Virus record (IMG/VR): IMGVR_UViG_3300013131_000024
Span: 32,001 to 96,000 of that record
Source of the DNA: a virus
Length of the DNA stretch: 64,000 nucleotides
Direction: 5' to 3' (one strand)
Shown: in pieces, positions 15,328 through 28,476 of the stretch
Layout of the letters: every line of letters starts with the position of its first letter
Position numbering within the stretch: position 1 is the stretch's first letter
The notes under the pieces: model-generated
Database searches by the model: none
What the model saw: the letters and a program-made list of their open reading frames with translations, nothing else
Told to the model about the DNA's origin: nothing
Program-made: the position numbers and the translations under genes

Positions 15328-15602
15328 TAAATCTAAGATTAGAAATCCTAAATCCCTGGAGCCGAGATAGATTTAAAAATCTAGGCTCTGTTTCTGGAAA
15401 AATCACTCAAAATAAAAGTTGGGAGTTAGAACATACATTCTGCGATAGTGTAATTTTTGACATAGAATTTAAATTTACAACCAAACAGGATCATGCTGGG
15501 TTAGAGTTAGTTTTTGGCATTTTAGGCTACGAAGTTCATTTTAGGATATGCGATAACAGGCATTGGGACTATGAAAACGATCGCTGGGCAGTGTATAATT
15601 AA
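15324..15602 (+). CDS. Hypothetical protein
   Basis: ATGA overlap. Confidence 0.65.
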   Translation: MINLRLEILNPWSRDRFKNLGSVSGKITQNKSWELEHTFCDSVIFDIEFKFTTKQDHAGLELVFGILGYEVHFRICDNRHWDYENDRWAVYN

Positions 15603-15655
15603 CATATACTATAATTTCAGAGATGATAAGTAATAGTGAATCCAAAGGAGCTGCT

Positions 15656-16225
15656 GTGTCCAAAAAGTTCGACGATTTTAATGCCGAAGATCGCATCGAC
15701 ATCAAATTACTGGAAAATTCCATACATTTTCTCACAGGTGAAATAGACCAAGAATCTGTGGATAAATGCATCAAATGGATAACCTACGAAAATTTAGATA
15801 CTCGATCAGAAAAAATTCTTACTCTTTACATCAATTCCACAGGCGGAGATTTGTATTCTGCTTTTGCCTTGATTGATGTAATGAAAAACAGTGAACATCC
15901 TGTTAGAACTATCGCTATAGGTGCTGTGATGAGTGCGGCATTTTTGATCGCAGCATCAGGTACCAAAGGACAGAGATTCGCTGCTCGCAATGTCAGTTAT
16001 ATGTGCCACCAATTTACGGAAAATGTTGATGCCAAATATCATGATATTAAGGCCGCGATGAAAGGTAATGAAATGTGTAATGATATGATGGTTGCTGTAT
16101 TGAAGGAAGCTACGGGGTTAGCACCTAGCATTATCAAGAAAAAACTACTGCCCGCCAGTGATGTGTATCTAACTGCTGATGAAGCTGTAGAATTAAAGAT
16201 CGCTGACAATATTTTAGAAAGATAA
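15656..16225 (+). CDS. clpP: ClpP-family protease subunit
   Basis: LYINSxGG, catalytic Ser in VMSAA, His in MCHQ, YLTADEA; GTG start after AAGGAG. Confidence 0.85.
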   Translation: MSKKFDDFNAEDRIDIKLLENSIHFLTGEIDQESVDKCIKWITYENLDTRSEKILTLYINSTGGDLYSAFALIDVMKNSEHPVRTIAIGAVMSAAFLIAASGTKGQRFAARNVSYMCHQFTENVDAKYHDIKAAMKGNEMCNDMMVAVLKEATGLAPSIIKKKLLPASDVYLTADEAVELKIADNILER

Positions 16226-16227
16226 AC

Positions 16228-16473
16228 ATGAGCAAAGTAATAGCCATAGACGGCAAAGCTAAAAAGGATCAAGAGCGGAAAGAATCTATGTTAGAAGTAT
16301 TGAAAGTCATAGAACAGCAGATAGAAGAAGGCAATATCAAAGAGTTCGTGGCCTGCTCTATGAACGAAGATGGCAAAGCGCAGGTGCATGCTAGCTGCTT
16401 AGATCTCGTAGGCGGCGTGGGCATGTTTGAAGTTGGCAAGCACTTACTGATCGAAAGCGACAGAATGTTGTAA
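16228..16473 (+). CDS. Hypothetical protein
   Basis: ORF track. Confidence 0.65.
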   Translation: MSKVIAIDGKAKKDQERKESMLEVLKVIEQQIEEGNIKEFVACSMNEDGKAQVHASCLDLVGGVGMFEVGKHLLIESDRML

Positions 16474-16500
16474 AAATGCCACATTATATGGGCATTTTTT
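16472..16500 (+). terminator. Probable (bidirectional) intrinsic terminator
   Basis: aaaaatgcc...ggcatttttt inverted repeat. Confidence 0.6.
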
Positions 16501-16502
16501 CA

Positions 16503-16531
16503 TTGACAAATAAATAAACAGACAATACAAT
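16503..16531 (+). promoter_or_regulatory. sigma70-like promoter
   Basis: TTGACA-17-TACAAT. Confidence 0.7.
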
Positions 16532-16600
16532 AGATACATGGTTAGTTGATGTTGTTGAAAAAGCAACAGCTCTTAATTTTTCCAAAAAGAAAAATAGGGG

Positions 16601-16629
16601 TTGACAACAGAACTAAATATTTGTATACT
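16601..16629 (+). promoter_or_regulatory. sigma70-like promoter of the leader/attenuator
   Basis: TTGACA-17-TATACT. Confidence 0.8.
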
Positions 16630-16680
16630 TAGATCATGCGTTGGAAATAGCGCAGAAATTTTAAAGGAAAAACAAAGCAA

Positions 16681-16821
16681 ATGAAAACAGTAGGATCGTT
16701 ATCAAGACATTATTGTATAGCCAAACAGGTAGGCATGCCCACCTCTTGGTCTGCGATTAGTCTGTTCAATAATGATCGTACACCAGAGCTATGTCAGGGG
16801 TCCATGGAGACGATGAGTTAA
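16681..16821 (+). CDS. Putative attenuator leader peptide, 46 aa (MKTVGSLSRHYCIAKQVGMPTSWSAISLFNNDRTPELCQGSMETMS)
   Basis: Read manually; AAGGA about 11 nt upstream; all 20 amino acids, 34 distinct codons; 3' end overlaps the antiterminator. Confidence 0.7.
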   Translation: MKTVGSLSRHYCIAKQVGMPTSWSAISLFNNDRTPELCQGSMETMS

Positions 16822-16853
16822 CGTAAAAATAACTCAAACTTCAAAAGGACCCC
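16797..16853 (+). promoter_or_regulatory. Putative antiterminator hairpin
   Basis: GGGGTCC(16797-16803)/GGACCCC(16847-16853); TGGAG/CTTCA; TGAGTTA(16814-16820)/TAACTCA(16830-16836). Confidence 0.7.
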
Positions 16854-16883
16854 AGGACTAAACACCCTGGGGTTTTTGTTTTT
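16849..16883 (+). terminator. Intrinsic terminator (attenuator)
   Basis: ACCCCAGG/CCTGGGGT stem, 9-nt loop, TTTTTGTTTTT tract. Confidence 0.85.
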
Positions 16884-16895
16884 ATAAGGAGAACT

Positions 16896-17072
16896 ATGCA
16901 GTATAATGAAATTGAATTTGATAAGTTGAGTAAGAGAATCGTTGAACAGGCTTACGCTTCTGCTGGTCAGGTACTAGACGAAGAGCAGAAACGCAAACTT
17001 ATTCAAGATAAGTTTGACCGAGCCCGTGCCATGCACGAAGCTCAACAGAAGAGTCCAATCTACGAAGATTAA
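16896..17072 (+). CDS. 58-aa helical protein immediately downstream of the attenuator
   Basis: AAGGAG RBS; MQYNEIEFDKLSKRIVEQAY...SPIYED; not in ORF track. Confidence 0.75.
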   Translation: MQYNEIEFDKLSKRIVEQAYASAGQVLDEEQKRKLIQDKFDRARAMHEAQQKSPIYED

Positions 17073-17078
17073 GACTCG

Positions 17079-17244
17079 AGTGTGGATGGGAAACGAGGTC
17101 CCAGCGACACACTGTAATAAAAACGTAAACGGGCGGCCTAGTGGATGGAATCCCTCTTGTGGGACTAAAAATACTAGCGTAATTAAGCATTCCCCATTCG
17201 CCCTGCGACGGCGTCTAAAATCATAGAGGAGAATGCTTAATTAC
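17079..17244 (+). ncRNA. Candidate structured RNA (three hairpins)
   Basis: agtgtg/cacact with tggga/tccca; ctagt/actag with tccc/ggga; perfect 14-bp stem 17179-17192/17231-17244. Confidence 0.5.
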
Positions 17245-17278
17245 ACACTCTCCTACTCCATTTGACAAGGAGGACAGG

Positions 17279-17307
17279 TTGACATAGTCTACGGAGAGTG
17301 TTATAAT
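17279..17307 (+). promoter_or_regulatory. sigma70 consensus promoter in front of tRNA-Tyr
   Basis: TTGACA-17-TATAAT. Confidence 0.85.
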
Positions 17308-17315
17308 ATGTCTTT

Positions 17316-17402
17316 GGAGGTGTGTGCCGAGCGGCGAAGGCAAGTGACTGTAAATCACCCACATCAGAAACACCGTAGGTTCGATTCCTACCGCCTCCAC
17401 CA
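17316..17402 (+). tRNA. tRNA-Tyr(GTA)
   Basis: Cloverleaf, long variable arm, encoded CCA. Confidence 0.9.
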
Positions 17403-17408
17403 AAATTT

Positions 17409-17483
17409 GGTCCTATAGTTTATCGGTTAGAATAATGGCCTGTCACGCCGTAGGGACGAGTTCGATTCTCGTTGGGACCGCCA
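17409..17483 (+). tRNA. tRNA-Asp(GTC)
   Basis: Cloverleaf, CCA. Confidence 0.9.
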
Positions 17484-17492
17484 AAGTTTTAT

Positions 17493-17570
17493 TCCGGGAT
17501 ACCGTTCTAGGTGAGGCGGGTCTGACTGTTAATCAGAAATAGATTGGTTCGAATCCAATTCCCGGAGCCA
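17493..17570 (+). tRNA. tRNA-Asn(GTT)
   Basis: Cloverleaf, CCA. Confidence 0.9.
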
Positions 17571-17623
17571 TTTGAAAGGTAGAGTGATAAATAAATATGT
17601 AAAATATTTTAAGGCTCTACCAT

Positions 17624-18067
17624 ATGAATTATAAGGGAACAAAAGACAAGACTTATGTCTGTCAGCATTGTAAAACAGAGTTTGGTTTTAAAGGTTATAG
17701 TAGCAATCATAAATTTTGCAGTTTAGATTGTTCTTATGCTTATCAATCAGCTCGAAAAGAAAGTTTAAAAGAGCATCGATATCAAAAATGGTTATCCGGA
17801 AAAGATATTGGTGTTAAAAATCCTCGTAAATTAATTAGAGATTTTTTAATTATACGCGATGGATATAGATGTAGTTGTTGTGGAATTGATAGTTGGAATG
17901 GTAAAGAAATAACACTCTGGACAGATCATATCGACGGAGATGCTACTAATAATCACCCAACTAACTTTAGATTAATCTGTCCTAACTGCGATAGCCAATC
18001 AGATACGTTTGGCGGCAAAAATTACGGTAAAGGAAGAAAATCTAGAGGTTTACCACAATATGGTTAA
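17624..18067 (+). mobile_element. Free-standing HNH homing endonuclease in the tRNA array
   Basis: CxxC/FCSxxC N-terminal Zn motif; RDGYRCSCC...DHIDG...N...NFRLICPNC. Confidence 0.85.
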
Positions 18068-18078
18068 GTAAAATTAAT

Positions 18079-18153
18079 GCACCGTTCGTCTATCGGTTAG
18101 GACACCCGCCTTTCACGCAGGTAAGAGGAGTTCGATTCTCCTACGGTGTACCA
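18079..18153 (+). tRNA. tRNA-Glu(TTC)
   Basis: Cloverleaf, CCA. Confidence 0.9.
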
Positions 18154-18160
18154 GTTTTAT

Positions 18161-18236
18161 GCGGCATTAGTACAGTTGGTAGTACATCTGCTTGCCAAGC
18201 AGAAGGTCACCAGTTCGAGCCTGGTATGCCGCTCCA
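18161..18236 (+). tRNA. tRNA-Gly(GCC)
   Basis: Cloverleaf, CCA. Confidence 0.92.
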
Positions 18237-18244
18237 AAGTTTTT

Positions 18245-18343
18245 GCCTCTGTAGCTTAATGGTAAAGAAGGGAGCTTATACCTCCCCAAAGCACAGGCCA
18301 GATAAGCCTGAGTGTGCAGGTTCGAGTCCTGCCAGAGGCACCA
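18245..18343 (+). tRNA. Atypical 99-nt tRNA-Ile-like RNA with two anticodon-like arms (TAT and GAT)
   Basis: Acceptor gcctctg/cagaggc plus ACCA, D and T arms; gggag-cttatac-ctccc and caggc-cagataa-gcctg. Confidence 0.75.
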
Positions 18344-18349
18344 GTTAAT

Positions 18350-18426
18350 GGCTCCGTAGTTCAGTCCGGCAGAACGTTGGTCTCCAAAACCAAATGTCGG
18401 TGGTTCAAATCCATCCGGGGTCGCCA
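18350..18426 (+). tRNA. tRNA-Trp(CCA)
   Basis: Cloverleaf, CCA. Confidence 0.9.
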
Positions 18427-18432
18427 AATGAT

Positions 18433-18509
18433 GTGAGGGTGCCAGAGAGGCCTAATGGCGCAGTCTGCAAAACTGTTGTTCGTCGGTTCGAATCCGACTC
18501 CTCACTCCA
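18433..18509 (+). tRNA. tRNA-Cys(GCA)
   Basis: Cloverleaf, U73, CCA. Confidence 0.9.
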
Positions 18510-18513
18510 GAAT

Positions 18514-18594
18514 GCCCCTATGGCCAAATTGGTAAAGGCGGCTCTCTCAAAAGGAGTGTCATAACTATCGGTTCGAATCCGATTAGGGGCACCA
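18514..18594 (+). tRNA. tRNA-Leu(CAA)
   Basis: Cloverleaf, reduced variable arm, CCA. Confidence 0.85.
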
Positions 18595-18602
18595 AAGATT
18601 AT

Positions 18603-18692
18603 GGAAGTGTGGCAGAGCCCGGCTTAATGCACCTGTCTTGAAAACAGACGATCCGAAAGGGTCCGTGAGTTCGAATCTCACCGCTTCCACCA
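18603..18692 (+). tRNA. tRNA-Ser(TGA)
   Basis: Cloverleaf, long variable arm, CCA. Confidence 0.9.
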
Positions 18693-18696
18693 AATT

Positions 18697-18770
18697 GCCC
18701 GGATAGTTAAATGGTATAACGGTCGCTTGATAAGCGATTATTCCAAGTTCAATTCTTGGTCTGGGCACCA
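18697..18770 (+). tRNA. tRNA-Ile(GAT)
   Basis: Cloverleaf, CCA. Confidence 0.9.
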
Positions 18771-18904
18771 ACCTTAAGGAGAACGCAAAATGGGGCGGTC
18801 GCAGTTTTACTCTTGCTGGTAGTATTGATATATTATATTGACAAAAATTTAAAATAGGAGAATGTTATGGAAAGTGATAAATCTGACAAAGGTCCCAAAC
18901 CTTT

Positions 18905-18979
18905 GGGGGTGTGGTGAAATGGTATCACAGCAGACTTTTAATCTGCCAATTTCGGGTTCGAGTCCCGGCGCCCCTACCA
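18905..18979 (+). tRNA. tRNA-Lys(TTT)
   Basis: Cloverleaf, CCA. Confidence 0.9.
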
Positions 18980-19045
18980 TATAAAAACACATTCTCTGCT
19001 GGGCATGAATCAGATTCTCTAGCGGGTATGAATGTGTTTCTATAT

Positions 19046-19120
19046 GGTAATGTAGCATAACGGTAGTGCAGCACCTTCATACGGTGCCCAGTGAAAGTTC
19101 GACTCTTTCCATTACCACCA
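19046..19120 (+). tRNA. tRNA(CAT): elongator Met, or lysidine-type Ile2
   Basis: Cloverleaf, G1-C72 paired, CCA. Confidence 0.85.
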
Positions 19121-19135
19121 GGATTAAATAAGTGT

Positions 19136-19381
19136 ATGAAAGAGCTACTGAAAAATCTGCCGCAGCTATTGGCTGCGATGCCAGAGCTAGTAAAGTACTT
19201 AAAATACATTCCAATCCTCATGATCCTCGCGGGCCTTGGCTACGGAGTAGTCTACTTCGTCCAGAATCGCAAGGATCCATATCAATGCGTTAACAATCAC
19301 GTCTTTGAACAGTTGAGATTAGACAGCGATGTCTATGTGTTCAAAGGCGGAACTTGTATCGATGCCAAAGATTTAAAATAA
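19136..19381 (+). CDS. Small membrane protein
   Basis: TAAATA upstream; one TM helix; two Cys. Confidence 0.7.
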   Translation: MKELLKNLPQLLAAMPELVKYLKYIPILMILAGLGYGVVYFVQNRKDPYQCVNNHVFEQLRLDSDVYVFKGGTCIDAKDLK

Positions 19382-19386
19382 ACTGT

Positions 19387-19460
19387 TGGGGTGTAGTGTA
19401 ATGGTAACACCACAGACTTTGACTCTGTAATTCTAGGTTCGAGCCCTAGCACCCCTGCCA
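19387..19460 (+). tRNA. tRNA-Gln(TTG)
   Basis: Cloverleaf, CCA. Confidence 0.9.
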
Positions 19461-19461
19461 T

Positions 19462-19535
19462 GCTCTTATAGTTAAATGGCAGAACACATCCTTGGTAAGG
19501 ATGCGATACAAGTTCGATTCTTGTTAGGAGCACCA
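19462..19535 (+). tRNA. tRNA-Thr(GGT)
   Basis: Cloverleaf, CCA. Confidence 0.9.
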
Positions 19536-19539
19536 TATT

Positions 19540-19614
19540 CGGCCTGTAGCTCAGTGGAAGAGTTCTGGTCTTCGAAACCAGCAGTCGGGAGTTCGAATCT
19601 CTCCAGGCCGGCCA
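19540..19614 (+). tRNA. tRNA-Arg(TCG)
   Basis: Cloverleaf, CCA. Confidence 0.85.
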
Positions 19615-19629
19615 TTTAAGGAGAAAACT

Positions 19630-19836
19630 ATGAAACCAACTTTATTCAAGAATCGTTTCAATAACGAGCGTTTTATCTGCGACAACCCTCGCTTGACCGA
19701 AAACATCGACGGTGTTGAATATGTTGTGGTCCATCGTCCTAATGAGCATCGTGAATTTAAAATGCGTCGTGATGCACTAGAAAAAATTAATGCGCCTGTA
19801 GCTCAGTCGGACCAGAGCACTACGCTACGAACGTAG
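19630..19836 (+). CDS. Hypothetical small protein whose 3' end overlaps tRNA-Arg(ACG)
   Basis: AAGGAG RBS. Confidence 0.7.
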   Translation: MKPTLFKNRFNNERFICDNPRLTENIDGVEYVVVHRPNEHREFKMRRDALEKINAPVAQSDQSTTLRT

Positions 19837-19869
19837 GGGTCGGAGGTTCGAATCCTTCCAGGCGTGCCA
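19792..19869 (+). tRNA. tRNA-Arg(ACG)
   Basis: Cloverleaf, CCA. Confidence 0.92.
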
Positions 19870-19875
19870 AACAAT

Positions 19876-19951
19876 GGTGTCCTTAATGTAGTGGCCTGCA
19901 TACTAGTCTGTGAAACTGGAAGTACCGGATCGATACCGGTAGGACACCCCA
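19876..19951 (+). tRNA. tRNA-His(GTG)
   Basis: G-1:C73, CCA; atypical T-loop ATCGATA. Confidence 0.85.
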
Positions 19952-19960
19952 AAAGAACAA

Positions 19961-20899
19961 TTAAAGATTTAAACAAAATTCTATTCGAATTTCTTTGTTG
20001 ATATGAGATACAAACAATTCATGTATATTAGAGGGCGGATCAAGTATTGTTCCTAAAGGTAGCTCTAACGGTAAATTACTTGGCAATCTTTCGTAAGATT
20101 TACACCACGATTGAAATCTTTTACTTGCATATAATCGTTTTCTTGTATAATCTATATCTATGGTAATACCGCCATTAGATCCGAGACGTCCTGTACAATC
20201 AAACTCGTTAGGATTATCTTCATCGTAAAATGATCGAAGAACACTTTTACCTAGAATGGATTGATCTAACAGCACCAAGTATTGATAAACTGAATATTTT
20301 TCATAATCATAATTTGCCAAAAAATCTTCTTGATCAAATTCTAACCAATTGTCAAATTGCAAATATCTATCAGTGGGCGTTATGTCAAAACTGGTAAATG
20401 GATATTTGGTTAAAGCATAATTTTTATTATCTGTAATAGTAATTTTTTCTAAAAGATGAACTGAATCATTGATTAAATTTATCAAGGAAAACCATTGATT
20501 ATAATCTATGAATTCTGGAATTGTGAATTTAGAATTATATACATTTTCCACAGATTTATTTAGGTGCAGAGTATCTCTAGCGAATAAAGCATTGTAAACA
20601 AAGAATCTGTGTAATTCATTTAGAATATTTTGATCGTAATTAAATTCTGTGGGAATCGTAGTAGGAAATTTTAAACCAAATCTTTCTAATTCTGATAAGG
20701 CAAATTGTATAAACTTCCAAGATTGTATAATTTGAGATTCGTGTATATAATATTCTTCTAATGATGCAAAATCTTTTTTACATTCATAAGATTGTTTTTT
20801 GCTATTAAAAAAATTAAACCATTTAAAATGCACTTTGTGATCTGTGAATATTCGAATCGCAATGTGTTGATCATTAAGAAAATGTAATTTTAAAAACAT
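19961..20899 (-). CDS. AT-rich hypothetical protein, antisense within the tRNA array
   Basis: 312-aa ORF; TAAATA on the minus strand just upstream. Confidence 0.75.
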   Translation of the reverse strand: MFLKLHFLNDQHIAIRIFTDHKVHFKWFNFFNSKKQSYECKKDFASLEEYYIHESQIIQSWKFIQFALSELERFGLKFPTTIPTEFNYDQNILNELHRFFVYNALFARDTLHLNKSVENVYNSKFTIPEFIDYNQWFSLINLINDSVHLLEKITITDNKNYALTKYPFTSFDITPTDRYLQFDNWLEFDQEDFLANYDYEKYSVYQYLVLLDQSILGKSVLRSFYDEDNPNEFDCTGRLGSNGGITIDIDYTRKRLYASKRFQSWCKSYERLPSNLPLELPLGTILDPPSNIHELFVSHINKEIRIEFCLNL

Positions 20900-20922
20900 A
20901 AATTATTTAATATCATCGCTTC

Positions 20923-20998
20923 GCCAACTTAGCTGATGTGGTCATAGCGGCGGTCTGAAGAACCGTGGAAAGACGTTCGATTCGTCTAGTTGGCACCA
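20923..20998 (+). tRNA. tRNA-Phe(GAA)
   Basis: Cloverleaf, CCA. Confidence 0.9.
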
Positions 20999-21001
20999 CA
21001 T

Positions 21002-21079
21002 GCGGATGTGATGGAATTTGGTATACATATCAGACTTAAAATCTGAGTTCTGAGGGTTCGAATCCCTCCATCCGCACCA
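21002..21079 (+). tRNA. tRNA-Leu(TAA), short variable loop
   Basis: Cloverleaf, CCA. Confidence 0.88.
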
Positions 21080-21084
21080 AACAT

Positions 21085-21156
21085 GCCTCTGCCGATGGAG
21101 CGGTGCCAGGTCTTCTAAACCAGGTTATGGGAGTTCGAATCTCTCCAGAGGCGCCA
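21085..21156 (+). tRNA. tRNA-Arg(TCT), shortened D arm
   Basis: Acceptor and T arms perfect; one anticodon-stem mismatch; CCA. Confidence 0.7.
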
Positions 21157-21164
21157 TATATCAG

Positions 21165-21193
21165 TTGACAAAGCATAGAATAGACTATATAAT
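21165..21193 (+). promoter_or_regulatory. sigma70 consensus promoter
   Basis: TTGACA-17-TATAAT. Confidence 0.85.
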
Positions 21194-21226
21194 ATACTTT
21201 GTTCATTAAAAATTTCTAGTTGTTAT

Positions 21227-21254
21227 GCCCCGGTGGTGGAATGGTAGACACGCT
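21227..21254 (+). pseudogene. Orphan 5' fragment of a tRNA-Leu
   Basis: gccccgg-tg-gtggaatggtagacac-gct matches a Leu acceptor 5' strand plus D arm, then breaks off. Confidence 0.75.
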
Positions 21255-21282
21255 TTTCTGTGTGTTTAGCATAAATAAATGT

Positions 21283-21726
21283 ATGAAAAACATTTATGAA
21301 TACATTTCACTCCCGAGGGTTGAAAGACAGTCTCATCTCAAATTGGATGAGCCGTGTCTAGAAAGAGGAGCAGGTAGTTATTATTTCAAAGGGCTTTTAG
21401 CTCATTGTTTAGATACTACAGTTCCTACAGGACATAAGATACATTTATGTCATGCTTGTCATAACGGTGCTTGTGGTAATCCCAATCATATGTATTGGGG
21501 TACAGCACAAGAAAATCGTTTAGATCAAGTTGAAAATAACGGCAAAACAATTTGGGAGAGAACTGTCGAAAAACACGGCTTAGAAAAAGCGAAAGCTATG
21601 AACAAACGTGTTGGAAATAAAAATGGTTCTGGCAATAAGGGTAAACCTAAAAGCGAGGAACATAAAGCAAAAATTGCCGCAAACCGTAAAGGTGGGCGAC
21701 AAAAGAAACATGCGGACGTGATGTAA
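21283..21726 (+). mobile_element. HNH/His-Cys-type homing endonuclease with NUMOD3-like tail
   Basis: CHACHNGACGNPNH...GTAQEN; KGKPKSEEHKAKIA. Confidence 0.85.
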
Positions 21727-21795
21727 CTGGTAGCCATGCGAGTCTTAGAAGCTCGTGCCTTGTGCGTGTGAGTTCGAGTCTCACCGTCCGCACCA
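21712..21795 (+). tRNA. tRNA-Leu(TAG)
   Basis: Cloverleaf with variable arm, CCA; 5' end overlaps the endonuclease stop. Confidence 0.9.
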
Positions 21796-21800
21796 AGTTT

Positions 21801-21831
21801 GCCCTATGGACTTAACCGACCTGGGGCACCA
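21801..21831 (+). other. tRNA microhelix-like remnant ending in ACCA
   Basis: gcccta/tggggc stem followed by ACCA. Confidence 0.5.
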
Positions 21832-21995
21832 TTAAAAAATAGCATTAGCGGGTATCGCTTGTGGACGCACAGGCTCACGAAGATTAGGGCCATCTACTTC
21901 TTCTGAAAAAACCGTGGACAATGGCTTATGAGGAGAATCGAACTCCACTCAGAAATCCGTCCCATCCCGTAGGGTGTAATGTTATTCTTTAATGG
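21829..21995 (+). ncRNA. Candidate ~165-nt structured RNA
   Basis: 19-bp closing stem (one A-C mismatch); inner gcggg/cccgt and ggacg/cgtcc pairings; no ORF in the track. Confidence 0.55.
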
Positions 21996-22006
21996 TAAAG
22001 TTTTTT

Positions 22007-22085
22007 CCGGGTGTAGCTTAGTCTGGCTTAAAGCGCCTGCTTTGGGAGCAGGAGATCGTGAGTTCGAATCCCACTTCCCGGACCA
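22007..22085 (+). tRNA. tRNA-Pro(TGG)
   Basis: Cloverleaf, CCA (some stem mismatches). Confidence 0.85.
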
Positions 22086-22091
22086 GTAAAT

Positions 22092-22166
22092 GCATCGTTA
22101 GTTCAGCGGTAGAACGTCGTCCTTACAAGGCGAATGTCAGTGGTTCGACTCCATTACGATGCACCA
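22092..22166 (+). tRNA. tRNA-Val(TAC)
   Basis: Cloverleaf, CCA. Confidence 0.9.
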
Positions 22167-22171
22167 ATGCC

Positions 22172-22263
22172 GGAAGGATGGCTGAGAGGCTTAAGGCAGC
22201 AGGTTGCTAACCTGTCGATTCGGGTAACTGGGTCCGAGGGTTCGAATCCCTCTTCTTCCACCA
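22172..22263 (+). tRNA. tRNA-Ser(GCT)
   Basis: Cloverleaf, long variable arm, CCA. Confidence 0.9.
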
Positions 22264-22282
22264 ATTTTAAAAAGGAAACTAA

Positions 22283-22462
22283 ATGTTAAGACCAACCGCA
22301 AATTACAAGATGTCCAAACCTACCAAAACTATGTTGGCATCGAGAAGATTTAATTCAGAAACACAAAGACATGACTGGAAAAGATCTATGATTCAGGCTG
22401 AATTAGCTGCTCTTATTCAACCTAAAAGAGAAAAAGGTCGTCGAGAGAACAAAGGTGAATAA
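22283..22462 (+). CDS. 59-aa basic protein (MLRPTANYKMSKPTK...)
   Basis: AAGGA RBS; read manually. Confidence 0.65.
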   Translation: MLRPTANYKMSKPTKTMLASRRFNSETQRHDWKRSMIQAELAALIQPKREKGRRENKGE

Positions 22463-22463
22463 C

Positions 22464-22646
22464 ATGGAAGATTCTCAAAATATTAAAAGAACCGGAACTT
22501 GTGGTTGTGGGCGATCACCAACTGGTGATTGTATTGGTTGGCACAGTCTATCTGAAGATATGTATCAACATCAAAAACTGCTTTGGATAGAAGAAGAAAT
22601 GCGTAAAGATCAGGAAGCAGCACACTTAAAGGAGACTGGCAGATGA
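22464..22646 (+). CDS. Small CDGSH-like Fe-S/Zn-binding protein
   Basis: CGCGRSPTGDCIGWH resembles the CDGSH 3Cys-1His motif. Confidence 0.55.
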   Translation: MEDSQNIKRTGTCGCGRSPTGDCIGWHSLSEDMYQHQKLLWIEEEMRKDQEAAHLKETGR

Positions 22647-22840
22647 GAGATAAACTGATAGATGCATTGAGAGTTCATTTTGCAGGTAATTTGTTAAAAC
22701 ATAAAATGAATGTAGAAGTTATGTTAAATAATCCAATCGCAATCCATGATCATACTGATTGGATGACTGCTATCGAATCGGAGATTGCACAAATAGCAGA
22801 ATACGAAGATAAATTAGAAGTATTGAATAAACATTTTTAA
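22643..22840 (+). CDS. Hypothetical small protein
   Basis: GGAG RBS; ATGA overlap. Confidence 0.7.
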   Translation: MRDKLIDALRVHFAGNLLKHKMNVEVMLNNPIAIHDHTDWMTAIESEIAQIAEYEDKLEVLNKHF

Positions 22841-22843
22841 ATT

Positions 22844-22917
22844 GGGGGATTAGTTAAATGGGATAACATCGGCTTTGCAAGCCGAGATTGAGAGTTCGAT
22901 TCTCTCATCCTCCACCA
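22844..22917 (+). tRNA. tRNA-Ala(TGC)
   Basis: Cloverleaf, G3:U70, CCA. Confidence 0.92.
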
Positions 22918-22921
22918 ATAT

Positions 22922-22995
22922 GCCCTTTTAGTATAATGGTAATACAGTGGATTTGTAATCCTCTGATGGCAGTTCGATTCTGTCAAGGGGCACCA
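22922..22995 (+). tRNA. tRNA-Thr(TGT)
   Basis: Cloverleaf, CCA. Confidence 0.9.
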
Positions 22996-23011
22996 AGATT
23001 ACCAAAATGTC

Positions 23012-23039
23012 TTGACACAGACACAAAACAGTGTATAAT
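23012..23039 (+). promoter_or_regulatory. sigma70-like promoter
   Basis: TTGACA-16-TATAAT. Confidence 0.75.
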
Positions 23040-23046
23040 AAGTTTT

Positions 23047-23320
23047 GTTGTGTAGCAATACACAACCGGTGAAGTGAAAGGTAGATGAGGATAGACGCCT
23101 AGTATGGTTTCATACCATACGAACTTATCTGGCAAAGACGACTTGAAAACGTCTCCGTGCTTGAGTGAGCTGATCCAAATATCTTTAACTAGACTGTCAA
23201 TTGCTGATCGGAAATATTCAGGTCTCTGTAGCCTGTCTATTGCACGTTGTCCAGACCGACGATATCGCACAATAGGTCTTGTCAATTGTCCGGTCTATTA
23301 CTTGACCTTTCATCGATCCG
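23047..23320 (+). ncRNA. Candidate ~270-nt structured RNA or long 5' leader
   Basis: GCAA-tetraloop hairpin; long-range gtgaaaggt/acctttcat and atagac/gtctat pairings; several inner hairpins. Confidence 0.55.
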
Positions 23321-23349
23321 TCATTATAATTGTAAAAAGAGAGACACAA

Positions 23350-23922
23350 ATGAATATCACACTACGCAAAGCAAATGCAGTACAAAACAGCATCAATGAT
23401 GCACTAAAAAACATTAAGGTTGATCTTAATGTTGAGATTAACGAGTTTCAAAATATCGAAGATGTTATTGGCAAAGCCAATAACACTTTGGTCGAAAATG
23501 ATGCACGTCGTCAAAAGTTGACTATGGCTTTGTACAATATCCGTGCTTTAGTAGGTACTGCAAATGCTGCGAGTGGAATTGACACTGCGCTGGCCAAGGC
23601 AGCGTTCATCGATAAACGTATTGGCCAATTAGAGCAATTGGCGAGCTCTACTGAGATGACTTCTTTAGAAATCATTAAAGGCAAGATTGAAAAGATCAAA
23701 AGTCTCAAGGACGAAGCTCGTAGCCGTATCTATGGCTATGGAGACACGGTAACAACTTCTGTTCTCAGCAAAGAACAGATCGCACAGGCCAAATCAGAAA
23801 TCCTTAATCTGAAAAAGCAAAAGCAAAAGCTCAACGATGAGATCCTTGAGCTGAATATCAAAACCGATATTCCATTATCAGATGATACTGTAGAATTACT
23901 ACAAACAGAAGGATTACTATGA
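23350..23922 (+). CDS. All-helical coiled-coil protein
   Basis: ATG 23350 (MNITLRKANAVQ); the longer ORF-track extension overlaps the structured RNA. Confidence 0.8.
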   Translation: MNITLRKANAVQNSINDALKNIKVDLNVEINEFQNIEDVIGKANNTLVENDARRQKLTMALYNIRALVGTANAASGIDTALAKAAFIDKRIGQLEQLASSTEMTSLEIIKGKIEKIKSLKDEARSRIYGYGDTVTTSVLSKEQIAQAKSEILNLKKQKQKLNDEILELNIKTDIPLSDDTVELLQTEGLL

Positions 23923-23928
23923 TATTGC

Positions 23929-24002
23929 CGCGGGTTATAGAAAAGGCATCTTACCAGTCTCATAAGCTGGAGTTGGGGGTTCGAGTCCCTCACCCGCAAC
24001 CA
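23929..24002 (+). tRNA. Initiator-like tRNA-fMet(CAT)
   Basis: C1:A72 mismatch, CCA; lacks the three consecutive G-C anticodon-stem pairs. Confidence 0.8.
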
Positions 24003-24031
24003 GTTATAGATAAAGATACTTATTTGAATAA

Positions 24032-24520
24032 ATGAATATCGCAATAATAATCGATTGTTGGAAAGATACACCAACTACATTGCATCATATAATTCTCTCT
24101 AAAATATTTAGATCGACAAGATTCGTTTATTTAAATATTAAGAAATTTTTAAGTTCAGATTTAATAGATGTAATAATTATTTCTTCCTACGACGACAAAG
24201 ATACTACTCCTACTATTTTAAACATAGACAAGAAAAAATTCTTTTTTTTACACGAAGAACAATTAATAGAATTTTTAAAAAATAATTCAGTTAAAAATAT
24301 CTATATGTGTGGTTGTGCCTGGGATAGTTGTGTAAGAGATCGTCCTCTTGGTTATTTGAATGTCTATAAAATTATTAATTCATTGAACTTAGATATTAGT
24401 GTTTTAGTAAAATATAACTGTGTTAAAAACTTAGATGACACATATTTTGTAAAATCAAAAAATGATGACTGGGTAAAAACCAGTGTAAAAAATATTTTTA
24501 AATACTATCCAAAATGTTAA
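24032..24520 (+). CDS. Isochorismatase/cysteine-hydrolase-like protein
   Basis: IIIDCW and IYMCGCAWDSCV motifs. Confidence 0.55.
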   Translation: MNIAIIIDCWKDTPTTLHHIILSKIFRSTRFVYLNIKKFLSSDLIDVIIISSYDDKDTTPTILNIDKKKFFFLHEEQLIEFLKNNSVKNIYMCGCAWDSCVRDRPLGYLNVYKIINSLNLDISVLVKYNCVKNLDDTYFVKSKNDDWVKTSVKNIFKYYPKC

Positions 24521-24527
24521 AGAATAT

Positions 24528-24597
24528 GTGGGAGTAGCTCGGTTGGTAGAGCATTTGCCTTTCAAGCAAGATGTCGTGAGTTCAAGTCTCGCAACCA
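24528..24597 (+). pseudogene. Decayed copy of tRNA-Gly(TCC); anticodon now TTC, acceptor 3' strand lost
   Basis: Near-identical to 24695-24770 over D, anticodon and variable regions. Confidence 0.8.
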
Positions 24598-24602
24598 ATT
24601 AG

Positions 24603-24677
24603 CTCGCTGTAGTTCAATGGACAGAACGATTCTCTCCTAAAGAATAAATCCAGGTTCGATTCCCGGTGGCGAGGCCA
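24603..24677 (+). tRNA. tRNA-Arg(CCT)
   Basis: Cloverleaf, CCA. Confidence 0.88.
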
Positions 24678-24694
24678 GTGTTAAATAGTTTTAT

Positions 24695-24770
24695 GCGGGT
24701 GTAGCTCAGTTGGTAGAGCACTTGCCTTCCAAGCAAGATGTCGAGAGTTCGAGACTCTTCGCCCGCTCCA
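24695..24770 (+). tRNA. tRNA-Gly(TCC)
   Basis: Cloverleaf, CCA. Confidence 0.92.
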
Positions 24771-24775
24771 AATAT

Positions 24776-25351
24776 ATGCAAGTAATAGACTATAACGATA
24801 CATTCCGTAAGTTTGATTTCAGTTCTGTTATAACAGCGGCTGATAACGATGTTGCTATAGGAATCGTGAAAAATATCATCGCAGATGGCAATTATTTTAC
24901 CAACAGTCCAAAATATCAAACTAAAGAAAACATCTTCAAAAGAAAAGAAACTGTATGGTTGAAATACCGTATGAGTTTTTTGTTTTCAGTTTTTATGTAC
25001 CTAGGTCGTGAAGTAAAAGTTTCTAACATGATGGCCTGGTCATTCATGACTAATTTAGAGGGTGCCGAAGACCGTGAAAAATTATGGCACCATCATTGGC
25101 ATCCTTCCAGACCAGATGCTAAGATGATGAGTGGAGTTTTTTATCTGCATATCCCCGACGATGTCAAAGACAGAGATTATGCAGGCACAGAAATGGCACC
25201 AAACGGCATAGATGCAGATGGAAAGTTTTTTGTCCGCCCTGCAGACTATCAATGGCTTATATATCCCAGCGATCAATGGCATAGACCCGGCATCGTCCAA
25301 AGTAACCAATACAGATTCGTGTTGGCAGCAGACGTAGAATATTACGATTGA
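24776..25351 (+). CDS. 2OG-Fe(II) oxygenase-like protein
   Basis: HxH...SGVFYL...YPS-x3-H...R pattern. Confidence 0.7.
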   Translation: MQVIDYNDTFRKFDFSSVITAADNDVAIGIVKNIIADGNYFTNSPKYQTKENIFKRKETVWLKYRMSFLFSVFMYLGREVKVSNMMAWSFMTNLEGAEDREKLWHHHWHPSRPDAKMMSGVFYLHIPDDVKDRDYAGTEMAPNGIDADGKFFVRPADYQWLIYPSDQWHRPGIVQSNQYRFVLAADVEYYD

Positions 25352-25397
25352 CAACAGCACTTTTTGGTGCTATAATACAACATCAAGGAGTGAAAAA

Positions 25398-25937
25398 ATG
25401 AACCCGTGGATCCAAAATGTATCTCTCAGCGATGTTAAGAAAGGAAATCATATCCATGCCGGCATTAACAGTATGCTGATTCAAATTGTAGATCCAGGTA
25501 TGGAGTTTCCTACACCTAGTTATCAGTTTCGAGAGATTCATCAATTCTTGTTTCTTGATGTTGAAGAAAAGGACGAAGTTTTGGAAGAAGAGATGCGTTG
25601 CAGTCAGACTCAGGCAGATCAGCTTGTCTCTCTGCTACACAGAGCATTCGAGAATCGTATGAACGTTGTTGTTCATTGTGTAGCAGGTGTTTGTCGTTCG
25701 GGTGCTGTCTGCGAAGTAGGTGTAATGATGGGCTTCCGTGATACCGAAGTATTTCGTTCGCCTAATCTGCTAGTCAAGCACAAGATGATGAAGTGCCTAG
25801 GTTGGACCTACGACGAGCAGGAGCCTCACACAATTAATGGGGCTCCTGTCGAAGAAGATTGGACCAACGACAACGAAAAGGTTTTTACCTTAGCAGCAGC
25901 TCGTCGTGAGCGCAGACAGCGTGAAGGAGATATCTAA
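25398..25937 (+). CDS. Protein-tyrosine/dual-specificity phosphatase-like protein
   Basis: VHCVAGVCRS (CX5R). Confidence 0.85.
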   Translation: MNPWIQNVSLSDVKKGNHIHAGINSMLIQIVDPGMEFPTPSYQFREIHQFLFLDVEEKDEVLEEEMRCSQTQADQLVSLLHRAFENRMNVVVHCVAGVCRSGAVCEVGVMMGFRDTEVFRSPNLLVKHKMMKCLGWTYDEQEPHTINGAPVEEDWTNDNEKVFTLAAARRERRQREGDI

Positions 25938-26344
25938 TGGAGTATCTCGTCCAGGCCAGAAACAAGAGGACTAAAGAGTTTATCGAAGCGATATTGCCTT
26001 CAATGATCAAACAACTGAGATTACAAAATAGTCGAAAAGCTCTATTCGTAAAAATCAGCAAGAGTGACATCGAAAGCAATAATATGGGACAGACTGCTTA
26101 TATTCAAGCCGTAGATGGGATTGTAGTTATAATCAGTCCTCAATCCAGAGAAAAGATGGGATTGACTCTAGCACACGAAATGATACATGTTAAACAGATG
26201 GCCAAAGGTGTGTTAAAAACTTATAATGGAGTTTCGTACTGGAGAGGTAAGAGGGTAGGTAAAAAAGTTAAATATCTGGATCAACCTTGGGAAATAGAAG
26301 CTTTTAGTAAACAGGAATTAATTTTTCGTAGGGCTATAGAATAA
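25937..26344 (+). CDS. Zn metallopeptidase-like protein
   Basis: LAHEMIHVKQ and PWEIEA. Confidence 0.8.
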   Translation: MEYLVQARNKRTKEFIEAILPSMIKQLRLQNSRKALFVKISKSDIESNNMGQTAYIQAVDGIVVIISPQSREKMGLTLAHEMIHVKQMAKGVLKTYNGVSYWRGKRVGKKVKYLDQPWEIEAFSKQELIFRRAIE

Positions 26345-27006: not shown

Positions 27007-27069
27007 GGCTTTACTTCTTTAATACGACATAAATATATTGAGTTAGGAAATTTCCAGGAGTTGAGAATT

Positions 27070-28476
27070 ATGCCCTTACAGATTCGCAGAGGCACTGAAG
27101 CAGAAAGAGTAGCCATGACACAACCTCTAGCACAAGGGGAGCTGCTTTATGTTACAAATACACAAAGAATTTATGTTGGAAATGGATCCACTTTAGGGGG
27201 TATTCCTGTAACTGGATATACCGATGGTAATGCCAAGGACGCAGCAGCCACAATCTTCACTAGCGGATCTCACACTGGGATAAACTTTTCTTATAACACC
27301 GCAACTGACATTATAACTGCAACAGTAGATCTGTCAAATTATAATGGCACTATCAATGCTTCTGCTCTAAAAGGAACTATCGTCGCTGACGATTCTACCA
27401 TATTAGTCGATGCAGTTTCAGGAACAATTCCTGCAACAGTAATAAGTGGAACCGCCACTATTAACGTCATTGGGAATACCACAGGATATCATACTGGTGA
27501 TGTCAAAGGATCAGTATTTGCAGACGATTCTACCATATTAGTCGATGCTGTTGCCGGTTCATTTAATTTAGACGGAACTGTTAAAGGAAATATCGTTCCA
27601 GATGCAAATGAAGTTTATGATCTAGGATCAGTCACAAATCGTTTTAGAGACATTTATCTAAGCGGTACTTCTATTAAATTAGGAAATGCAACCATAACCG
27701 CCACCGGTGCTGCTGTTGATCTTCCGGTAGGATCTACTGTCGGTGGTATATCTATAGCTAGTTCTGGAGATGGAGTAATTTCAGGCAGTAATTACAATAT
27801 CAACATCATTCGAGATGACAGTACTGTAATAGTGAACTCTTCATCAGGAGTTATTACAGCAGATACATTATACGGAACTTTATTTGGAACACTCGAAGGA
27901 GATGTAAGCGGATCAATATTTTCAGATGACAGCACTATCATGCTAGACGGCATTGATAAAGTACTAACAGTCAATTCGATTAATACCACTGAGATAAATG
28001 CGGAGGCTTCTAGACTATTTGTTAAATCATCTAGTCCTCAACCCATAGATGCTGTTGCTATCACAGACGGATCTACTGCACCATATATAGGATTAAGTGT
28101 ATCTAGAGGAACTATATCCTCTCCCACAAATACTAATGCTAACGATATTCTAGGAGGATTTAAAATTGAAGGTTATAGAGCGGGCGTATATAAATTTGCA
28201 TCTGGTATGGCTTCTATATGGGCTAGTGATGCTGATTATTCATATACTTATCCTAGATCAACTTTTAATTTATTCACCGGCAACAACTCCAATATGTTAG
28301 CAATAGGTGCATCATTAGATGGTGCCGGAACTTGGACAGCTAACACGATAAAAACAGGCACGTACACTTCTGCTCCAGATACTAGACCTACTGGTTCAAA
28401 GGGCATGATTATTTTTAATGACACTACCGGAAAATTTCAAGGATTCGACGGTTCGAGTTGGGTTGATCTAAGTTAA
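27070..28476 (+). CDS. Tail fibre/virion structural protein
   Basis: LQIRRGT...LAQGEL...GNG N-terminal fibre motif; repeated GS(V/I)FADDST; C-terminal GMIIFN...FQG...W. Confidence 0.7.
   Translation: MPLQIRRGTEAERVAMTQPLAQGELLYVTNTQRIYVGNGSTLGGIPVTGYTDGNAKDAAATIFTSGSHTGINFSYNTATDIITATVDLSNYNGTINASALKGTIVADDSTILVDAVSGTIPATVISGTATINVIGNTTGYHTGDVKGSVFADDSTILVDAVAGSFNLDGTVKGNIVPDANEVYDLGSVTNRFRDIYLSGTSIKLGNATITATGAAVDLPVGSTVGGISIASSGDGVISGSNYNINIIRDDSTVIVNSSSGVITADTLYGTLFGTLEGDVSGSIFSDDSTIMLDGIDKVLTVNSINTTEINAEASRLFVKSSSPQPIDAVAITDGSTAPYIGLSVSRGTISSPTNTNANDILGGFKIEGYRAGVYKFASGMASIWASDADYSYTYPRSTFNLFTGNNSNMLAIGASLDGAGTWTANTIKTGTYTSAPDTRPTGSKGMIIFNDTTGKFQGFDGSSWVDLS

Follow-up and report, generated by a model that had tools for sequence, protein, structure and literature searches.

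Why would a phage place, ahead of a large array of transfer RNA (tRNA) genes, a very short open reading frame (ORF) that calls on every amino acid? The question is raised by a stretch of 64,000 nucleotides (nt) from IMG/VR virus record IMGVR_UViG_3300013131_000024 (positions 32,001 to 96,000 of that record; this whole stretch is referred to as the window), in which positions 16601-16883 hold a promoter, a 46-codon leader ORF and two overlapping hairpins, all on the plus strand. A first inspection of the letters, referred to here as the sequence-only reading, had proposed a generalised attenuator, that is, a leader peptide that responds to a stall at almost any codon and is coupled to a terminator/antiterminator switch. 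The computational follow-up described below supports this proposal, which came through all of the refutation tests named beforehand that can be run on sequence. In the window and its relatives the leader frame is conserved and its composition is under selection, the two helices are mutually exclusive and covary, the stop codon keeps its position within the switch, and a tRNA array is linked to the element. The best explanation is probably a ribosome-mediated transcription attenuator in which the leader peptide would serve as a universal decoding test.

The Leader Reading Frame and Its Relatives

The leader transcript is predicted to start from a sigma-70-type promoter, TTGACA-17-TATACT (16601-16629, 11/12 matches), which the first inspection had already picked out and which has an equivalent in homologues. 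In the minimum free energy (MFE) fold a 5′ stem-loop follows at 16637-16654. This stem-loop is found in the subgroup of relatives that has a 5′ untranslated region and is missing from a near-leaderless subgroup; its pairing is kept, as judged by eye, by variant sequences in relatives. The leader ORF itself extends from 16681 to 16821, comprises 46 codons with a TAA stop, and has a frame that is conserved in 74 distinct homologues. Codons 1-36 (16681-16788) form the proposed sensing part. The amino-acid set is complete by codon 36, as had been stated from the letters, and this part ends with the codons for NDRTPE before the hairpin.

Codon usage within this leader is diverse. The ORF employs 34 distinct codons (27.5 ± 2.8 in a null of 46-codon windows from the genome, P = 0.009), its codons engage 26 of the 29 phage tRNA species (null 19.4 ± 2.3, P = 0.001), and G+C at third codon positions amounts to 0.43 vs 0.30 for the genome. 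The earlier remark that synonymous codons are spread over isoacceptor classes, away from the A/T-ending bias of neighbouring genes, is thereby borne out. The completeness of this single leader is on its own only mildly unusual: 1.7% of the 46-residue windows drawn from the ORFs of this genome contain all 20 amino acids, the background rate of such windows lies at 1.3-4.3%, and 3 of the 179 ATG-initiated ORFs of 35-54 residues in the record have 20 kinds, the other two being spurious frames over tRNA genes. Decisive support therefore rests on the homologues.

The 74 distinct homologous leaders (35-54 codons, median 47) derive from about 100 uncultured phage contigs. Sample 1, found via the neighbouring ClpP gene and then via short peptide patterns, comprises 44 loci, whose leader coding sequences take 33 distinct forms. 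Sample 2 (61 loci) was anchored only on the downstream gene for a 58-amino-acid (58-aa) protein and was blind to the leader, which was taken as the longest ATG-initiated ORF ending 25-95 nt before the terminator, its composition being ignored.

Several features of these homologues mark the frame as coding. Length differences between the conserved blocks of the leader are always multiples of three, the six codons of NDRTPE vary at third positions only and only synonymously, in-frame stops are absent, and the stop codon is TAA in nearly all members. RNAalifold applied to 25 leaders detected no conserved structure in the body of the ORF (consensus energy close to 0), so that pairing does not explain the preservation of the frame. 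Most members share the motif ..AKQ.GFMPSYWS..NDRTPE, both as peptide and as nucleotides, with a linker of 4 to 12 residues between the Trp and NDRTPE. The sequence-only reading had looked for an ORF, a pairing and a codon diversity that persist in related loci despite divergence of the peptide; all three are kept, but the peptide is not free to vary in most members.

In AlphaFold2 models based on 34 sequences, the leader peptide does not look like a folded protein: the predicted local distance difference test score (pLDDT) is 60, the predicted template modelling score (pTM) is 0.12, and only one helix of four residues is formed. Searches of the leader against Pfam and PHROGs gave no match at E ≤ 0.1 and returned chance-level hits only. 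A match of one homologue to the SpeFL leader (E = 0.15) was rejected as being at chance level, and an arrest peptide of the TnaC/SecM kind with fixed Trp-Pro spacing was likewise rejected, since this spacing is 12 in the window and 9-17 in homologues.

Completeness of the Amino-Acid Set

All 20 amino acids are present in 68 of the 74 distinct leaders, while four leaders have 19 and two have 18. In the leader-blind sample 2, 45 of 50 leaders are complete, and this sample includes divergent leaders in which the usual motif is almost entirely missing (L059, L062, L093 and L104). Even the forms of 35-38 codons hold 19-20 kinds. The neighbouring small gene of the same loci, used as a matched control (66 forms of 51-65 residues), has between 14 and 19 kinds and in no form all 20. 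Among 20 representatives, one per cluster and <50% identical, 18 leaders are complete, whereas shuffling of alignment columns gave 3.0 complete leaders on average and at most 10 in 5000 trials. Descent alone, therefore, does not explain the completeness.

The excess over the shuffled sets arises because rare residues hop between columns and thus compensate for losses. Every leader has Cys (mean 1.1 copies, a single one in 26/33), which is spread over 13 alignment columns; His is single in 30/33 leaders (6 columns) and Tyr in 26/33 (8 columns). Where the usual Tyr before Trp is replaced, another Tyr turns up elsewhere in the leader, and one leader that has lost its usual His has gained a new one four residues later. 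By the end of NDRTPE, which corresponds to 33-43 codons, the set is complete in 20 of the 33 leaders, and the others add only Val or Ile later. Ala contributes on average 2.7 residues per leader of ~47 (about 6%). The leader has no runs of cognate regulatory codons, and it matches its cargo in a generalised sense only. Taken together, these comparisons indicate that the complete amino-acid set is maintained by selection: across the homologues amino-acid diversity, which the sequence-only reading had wished to see compared with the genome background, lies far above it and is kept there by the hopping of rare residues.

The Antiterminator/Terminator Switch

The 3′ part of the leader overlaps a three-tier hairpin of 57 nt, the antiterminator (16797-16853, -22.8 kcal/mol), in which 16797-16803 pair with 16847-16853, 16805-16809 with 16839-16843, and 16814-16820 with 16830-16836. 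The leader stop codon (16819-16821) forms the 5′ edge of its apical loop. The intrinsic terminator (16850-16883, -12.5 kcal/mol) has a G+C-rich stem of 7 base pairs (bp; 16850-16856/16866-16872) with a 9-nt loop, followed by TTTTTGTTTTT, the T-run extending to 16883. The bases CCCC at 16850-16853 are at once the last four of the antiterminator and the first four of the terminator, and through them the two structures are mutually exclusive, in agreement with the initial claim. The whole leader transcript folds unusually well (z = -4.75), and its MFE fold contains the long hairpin and not the terminator. A search of the leader and of the structured RNA further downstream against Rfam (15500-26000, E ≤ 1) returned only tRNAs and chance matches.

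A covariance model of the hairpin was built and then used to realign 71 loci. In this alignment the base helix of the antiterminator is 98.8% paired, with compensatory changes in 5/7 pairs; one of these pairs is G-C in 39 loci, A-U in 27 and G-U in 4. The terminator stem, again followed by a T-run, is 99.4% paired, with compensatory changes in 4/7 pairs. For either helix, neither the covariation score nor the percentage of paired cells was matched in 500 shuffles. For the hairpin as a whole, 0/500 shuffles had a covariation as high, and the score was well above that of slid controls. The apical helix is poorly aligned owing to length variation and forms in each individual fold.

The four columns shared by the two helices carry the strongest constraint on the arrangement, in that both pairings are possible in 67-70 of the 71 loci per column. 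At one shared position the triplets are G-C-G in 39 loci, A-U-G in 17, A-U-A in 10 and G-U-G in 4, with the central base compatible with both partners in 70/71 loci; at another they are G-C-G in 63 and U-A-U in 4. Such joint change of a base with both of its alternative partners marks a structure in which each of the two helices has to remain available. The antiterminator is the stabler of the two in 71/71 loci (median -23.6 vs -11.1 kcal/mol). Its earlier transcription is a further advantage, so that it should prevail whenever nothing holds its 5′ arm.

A degenerate copy of the element occurs at 2507-2665 of locus L025, and also in L028. Having lost the antiterminator hairpin by deletion, it has a leader ORF that continues across the terminator to a TAG stop, and it could represent either a dead element or a natural "always terminate" variant.

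Ribosome Position and Proposed Mechanism

The position of the stop codon relates translation of the leader to the 5′ arm. It lies within the antiterminator in 69/69 loci, where it follows the base that opens the 5′ arm by 11-28 nt (median 22) and precedes the terminator by 23-34 nt (median 28). Folding of 16636-16883 with a 27-nt ribosome footprint forced single-stranded, a comparison that had been proposed at the outset, gave a clear division along the leader. Without a ribosome the probability of the antiterminator is 0.995; with codons 2-33 in the P-site the antiterminator retains 0.63-1.0, and with codons 35-45 the terminator takes 0.8-1.0. In the window the terminator begins 29 nt after the stop codon, out of reach of a terminating ribosome, which agrees with measurements in which, according to the available part of the paper, a terminator was repressed only when it stood a few bases behind a gene (PMC4824070).

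Briefly, the proposed mechanism would run as follows. The polymerase would start at 16601-16629, and a ribosome would translate the 46-codon leader. If all codons were decoded promptly, the ribosome would enter the last ten codons and the stop, which constitute the 5′ arm of the antiterminator; with this arm held in the ribosome, CCCC 16850-16853 would be free to form the terminator stem, and transcription would end at 16873-16883. If the ribosome were delayed in codons 2 to ~34, or never loaded, the antiterminator would form first and take the CCCC, and the polymerase would continue into the 58-aa gene, the structured RNA and the tRNA array. Such a delay could stem from a shortage of any charged tRNA, from tRNA cleavage (e.g., by defence systems) or from a general block of elongation. 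Translation of the leader in step with transcription is inferred, as are the polarity of the switch and its physiological signal.

A wider interpretation, which is possible but tentative, would see in the element an alarm raised when the translation machinery is attacked. The element would detect the loss of any usable tRNA, as caused by host anticodon nucleases or tRNA-directed defences, and would answer with replacement tRNAs together with the 58-aa protein and the structured RNA as dedicated effectors, which could be new counter-defence or ribosome-rescue factors.

Objections and Rival Explanations

A number of observations weigh against the attenuator as proposed. At the 5′ end, the Shine-Dalgarno-like AGGA lies 12-16 nt ahead of the ATG, which is too distant, and a large subgroup of relatives is near-leaderless, with the -10 box 6-11 nt ahead of the ATG. 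The motif is conserved even at synonymous sites (AAT GAT CGT ACA CCA GAG for NDRTPE; GCC, GGC and CCC elsewhere), which selection on composition alone does not explain and for which no conserved RNA structure accounts. Of 33 leaders, 13 have Val or Ile in the tail only, either at the hairpin arm or within it, a position where stalling would not promote read-through under the simple model. A protector/pause (1:2) hairpin upstream of the antiterminator was not found by RNAalifold in 25 leaders, so that an untranslated transcript should read through. Here the trp/his/thr-type geometry invoked by the sequence-only reading applies in part: leader, terminator and antiterminator are in place, but the protector hairpin is not. 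The folding model describes equilibrium and not kinetics, and with the P-site on the last sense codon it re-closes the 7-bp base helix around the ribosome, a closure that is sterically doubtful. Finally, the array of the window has consensus promoters of its own at 17279, 21165 and 23012, which had been raised as a caveat from the start; in this phage the switch would therefore only add to tRNA transcription, or would mainly control 16896-17262.

These promoters are also one of the points in favour of the best-surviving rival, in which the same switch would respond to overall ribosome activity or to transcription-translation coupling (as altered by host shut-off, ribosome-targeting toxins or antibiotics, or the timing of infection), its key product being the 58-aa protein and the structured RNA and not the tRNAs. 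In line with this, the 58-aa gene or the structured RNA always stands directly behind the terminator, the antiterminator is predicted to form without any ribosome, and general translation stress is known to be sensed by the leader attenuators of whiB7 (PMC10274678) and, as described in the available parts of two further papers, of the ABCF genes vmlR and msrD (PMC9226507, PMC10314930). A general sensor, however, has no need of a complete amino-acid set, and the way in which losses of single Cys, His, Tyr and Trp codons are compensated speaks for sensitivity to each amino acid; in many relatives, moreover, the stretch from the switch to the first tRNA contains no recognisable promoter. This explanation is considered unlikely.

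Less likely again is the idea that the terminated transcript of ~250 nt is itself the product, a stable small or dual-function RNA protected by its 3′ hairpin, with the overlap of the two helices only aiding 3′-end formation. Such an RNA would fit a transcript that has its own promoter and terminator and the strong overall structure noted above, and some stretches are conserved as nucleotides beyond coding needs. RNA-library runs hold only 5-8% of the words, and the contigs assembled from them belong to relatives and cover the leader, several ending near 16873-16882; given loose ends and possible DNA carry-over, they are a weak argument and are not usable as evidence of expression or termination. 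Against a purely structural role, the body of the ORF is without conserved secondary structure, while only translation can account for the signature of a reading frame and for selection on all 20 amino acids. The three-way co-variation, furthermore, keeps both helices, of which a simple 3′ hairpin would have no need.

An ordinary small protein gene with its own terminator and an inherited completeness (a micropeptide such as a minimal helix-turn-helix (HTH) protein or the precursor of a modified peptide) is very improbable, for although the conserved motif resembles, by eye, helices 2-3 of an Xre-type HTH and radical-SAM/SPASM genes occur elsewhere in the window, the peptide has no Pfam or PHROG match, the HTH idea was dropped in view of the missing AlphaFold2 fold and the variable Trp-NDRTPE linker, divergent members without the motif keep all 20 amino acids, the column-shuffle tests reject simple inheritance, and the radical-SAM genes are 15-30 kb off and unlinked to the element in the related loci fetched.

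Genes and RNAs behind the Switch

If the element is an attenuator that tests decoding, the products made upon read-through lie immediately downstream, likewise on the plus strand. The first is the 58-aa protein, encoded at 16896-17072 with AAGGAG 6 nt before its ATG and carrying the motif ..KLIQDKF.RAR... An ORF of 51-65 residues with a well-placed AAGGAG starts 12-15 nt past the T-run in nearly all loci. The protein is predicted to form a two-helix hairpin (pLDDT 70); searches gave only chance-level Pfam and PHROG hits and no usable match in the ESM Atlas. Between this gene and the first tRNA lies a conserved structured RNA of ~180 nt (17075-17262), for which RNAalifold predicts 32 pairs, 18 of them with compensatory changes; three of its helices show such changes. 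Its invariant stretches are GGGCGGCC, GGATG and the stem GTATTAAAG.../...CTTTAATAC. The structured RNA abuts the first tRNA, usually tRNA-Tyr, and in the three loci in which the small ORF is missing (L011, L035 and L036) it directly follows the terminator.

The tRNA array of the window (17316-24770) comprises 29 genes called by ARAGORN and 2 by Rfam, covers all 20 amino acids and is interspersed with homing-endonuclease-like and other ORFs. In essentially every locus that extends far enough, an array starts 250-980 nt (mostly 250-720) downstream of the element. The perfect consensus promoter just before tRNA-Tyr (17279-17307) provides a switch-independent entry to the array of the window. A simple scan detected no near-consensus promoter before the first tRNA in about half of the sample-1 loci. 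In many relatives, therefore, transcription may enter the array mainly by way of the switch, which in the window may be an additional entry.

Several further features of these arrays were recorded. Homing endonucleases inserted in tRNA regions are typical of phages, and an HNH endonuclease gene (17624-18067, PHROG 1e-21) is found here between tRNA genes. A tRNA-like gene of 96 nt (18245-18340) scores 59 bits with Rfam and was missed by ARAGORN in the window; its 92-nt equivalent in relatives is called tRNA-Ile (anticodon TAT) by ARAGORN, and the 96-nt gene seems to have an insertion in or near the anticodon arm. The second tRNA identified by Rfam only is located at 24528-24600. In L002 (7630-7715), as well as in L006, L021, L031, L034, L039 and L044, the first tRNA is a long-arm tRNA-Tyr-like gene missed by ARAGORN. 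This gene begins 4-8 nt after a TACAAA box, and owing to this short distance it is probably matured from a read-through transcript and not made from a promoter of its own. A permuted transfer-messenger RNA of the two-piece type (RF04321, 99-110 bits) is located 300-900 nt upstream of the leader in L024 (1548-2036) and L025 (1739-2211); some members therefore encode ribosome rescue beside the tRNA island.

Source Record and Gene Neighbourhood

The source is a 109.9-kb IMG/VR virus record from lake-water metagenomes with an estimated completeness of ~31%, from which a phage genome of roughly 350 kb is probable. No DNA or protein match to the locus, the leader or a neighbouring 780-aa protein was obtained among 50,697 cultured-phage records; the phage clade is known only from metagenomes. 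A DNA-pattern scan of 185,579 prokaryote genomes gave a single match, a chance one on a G+C-rich contig without ORF, switch or tRNAs, and no second copy of the leader element was found elsewhere in the same record.

The gene order around the element is ClpP-like protease, 81-aa ORF, leader element, 58-aa ORF, structured non-coding stretch and tRNA array. The ClpP-family protease gene (15623-16225; Pfam CLP_protease, 5e-31), whose nearest PHROGs are head-maturation proteases, thus adjoins the translation-related island. The stretch 16503-16575 holds a second near-consensus promoter, TTGACA-17-TACAAT, which precedes that of the leader by 100 nt and is conserved in L002. Since a short hairpin and T-run (16551-16570) come after it, this promoter could be the source of a tiny transcript or act as a tandem promoter. 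Farther downstream, a protein with an Mtd_N (major tropism determinant) domain is encoded at 27061-28476, and a low-G+C block at 28000-52800 (30-33% vs 37-41% elsewhere) contains at least four radical-SAM proteins, one of them with a SPASM domain; this block may be a peptide- or nucleotide-modification island.

Comparison with Known Systems

Known attenuator leaders report one or a few amino acids. The classical enterobacterial examples are trpL, hisL, leuL and pheL, the multivalent thrL and ilvL, and pheM of pheST. The phage element shares with these systems a leader ORF, an intrinsic terminator and an overlapping antiterminator, together with a polarity by which a finishing ribosome would lead to the terminator and a stalled one to read-through, the pheL leader attenuator serving as reference (PMC3082878). 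In classical leaders, by contrast, one to three regulatory amino acids are repeated in runs, and a protector (1:2) hairpin doubles as a pause signal, whereas the phage leader has no runs, uses all 20 amino acids mostly one to three times each and lacks the protector hairpin. It also matches no Rfam leader, T-box or other curated cis-regulatory family.

With respect to the cargo, the nearest parallel is cellular. The trn operon of Anabaena, a near-complete extra tRNA array, is described in the available part of one paper as normally silent and switched on when translation is impaired (PMC8421152), and in that of another as being under the protein repressor TrcR (PMC10272220). As far as these texts go, that array resides on a megaplasmid and relies on a protein repressor, whereas a cis-acting leader switch is proposed for the phage. 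Phage tRNAs are also reported to counter tRNA-targeting defences (PMC10264068, PMC11555353). These papers offer a reason to sense the loss of tRNA; they concern the tRNAs themselves, and their available parts describe no sensor or attenuator ahead of the arrays. A survey of the full-text literature likewise turned up neither an all-amino-acid leader nor an attenuator ahead of phage tRNA arrays.

Among published systems, the upstream ORF (uORF) attenuator of whiB7 (wblC) in mycobacteria and other Actinobacteria comes closest. Efficient translation of this uORF leads to a Rho-independent terminator, and translation stress leads to an antiterminator (PMC10274678). The amino-acid content of the uORF decides which starvations are sensed, the M. 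smegmatis uORF containing all amino acids but Cys, and removal of the only Trp codon, or of the His codons, weakens the response to depletion of that amino acid (PMC10274678). By analogy, these experiments validate the logic and polarity proposed for the phage leader, which likewise consists of a short and diverse uORF before a Rho-independent terminator with a competing antiterminator. The two systems nevertheless differ in several respects. The whiB7 uORFs are 25-40% Ala, vary in the amino acids that they miss and control a transcription factor (PMC10274678), whereas the phage leader contains ~6% Ala, conserves its completeness (68/74) and has rare residues about once each. The phage element, moreover, is viral, has a small protein, a structured RNA and a tRNA array as its cargo, and bears no sequence relation to whiB7.

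Leader-peptide attenuation is thus a known mechanism, while the design principle and the cargo found here are unprecedented. If the attenuator reading is true, phage tRNA arrays would gain their first described cis-regulatory control. Such control would account for how giant phages time the supply of their own tRNAs and would tie the arrays to the arms race over tRNA-targeting defences, and it would identify the 58-aa protein and the ~180-nt structured RNA as products made when translation falters. The compact and modular element could also be developed into a synthetic reporter of any aminoacyl-tRNA shortage. Compared with whiB7, whose uORF is broad by accident of composition, the phage leader is kept by selection at a codon per amino acid in as few as 35 codons, and such selection for every amino acid in a minimal ORF would imply a deliberately universal decoding sensor.

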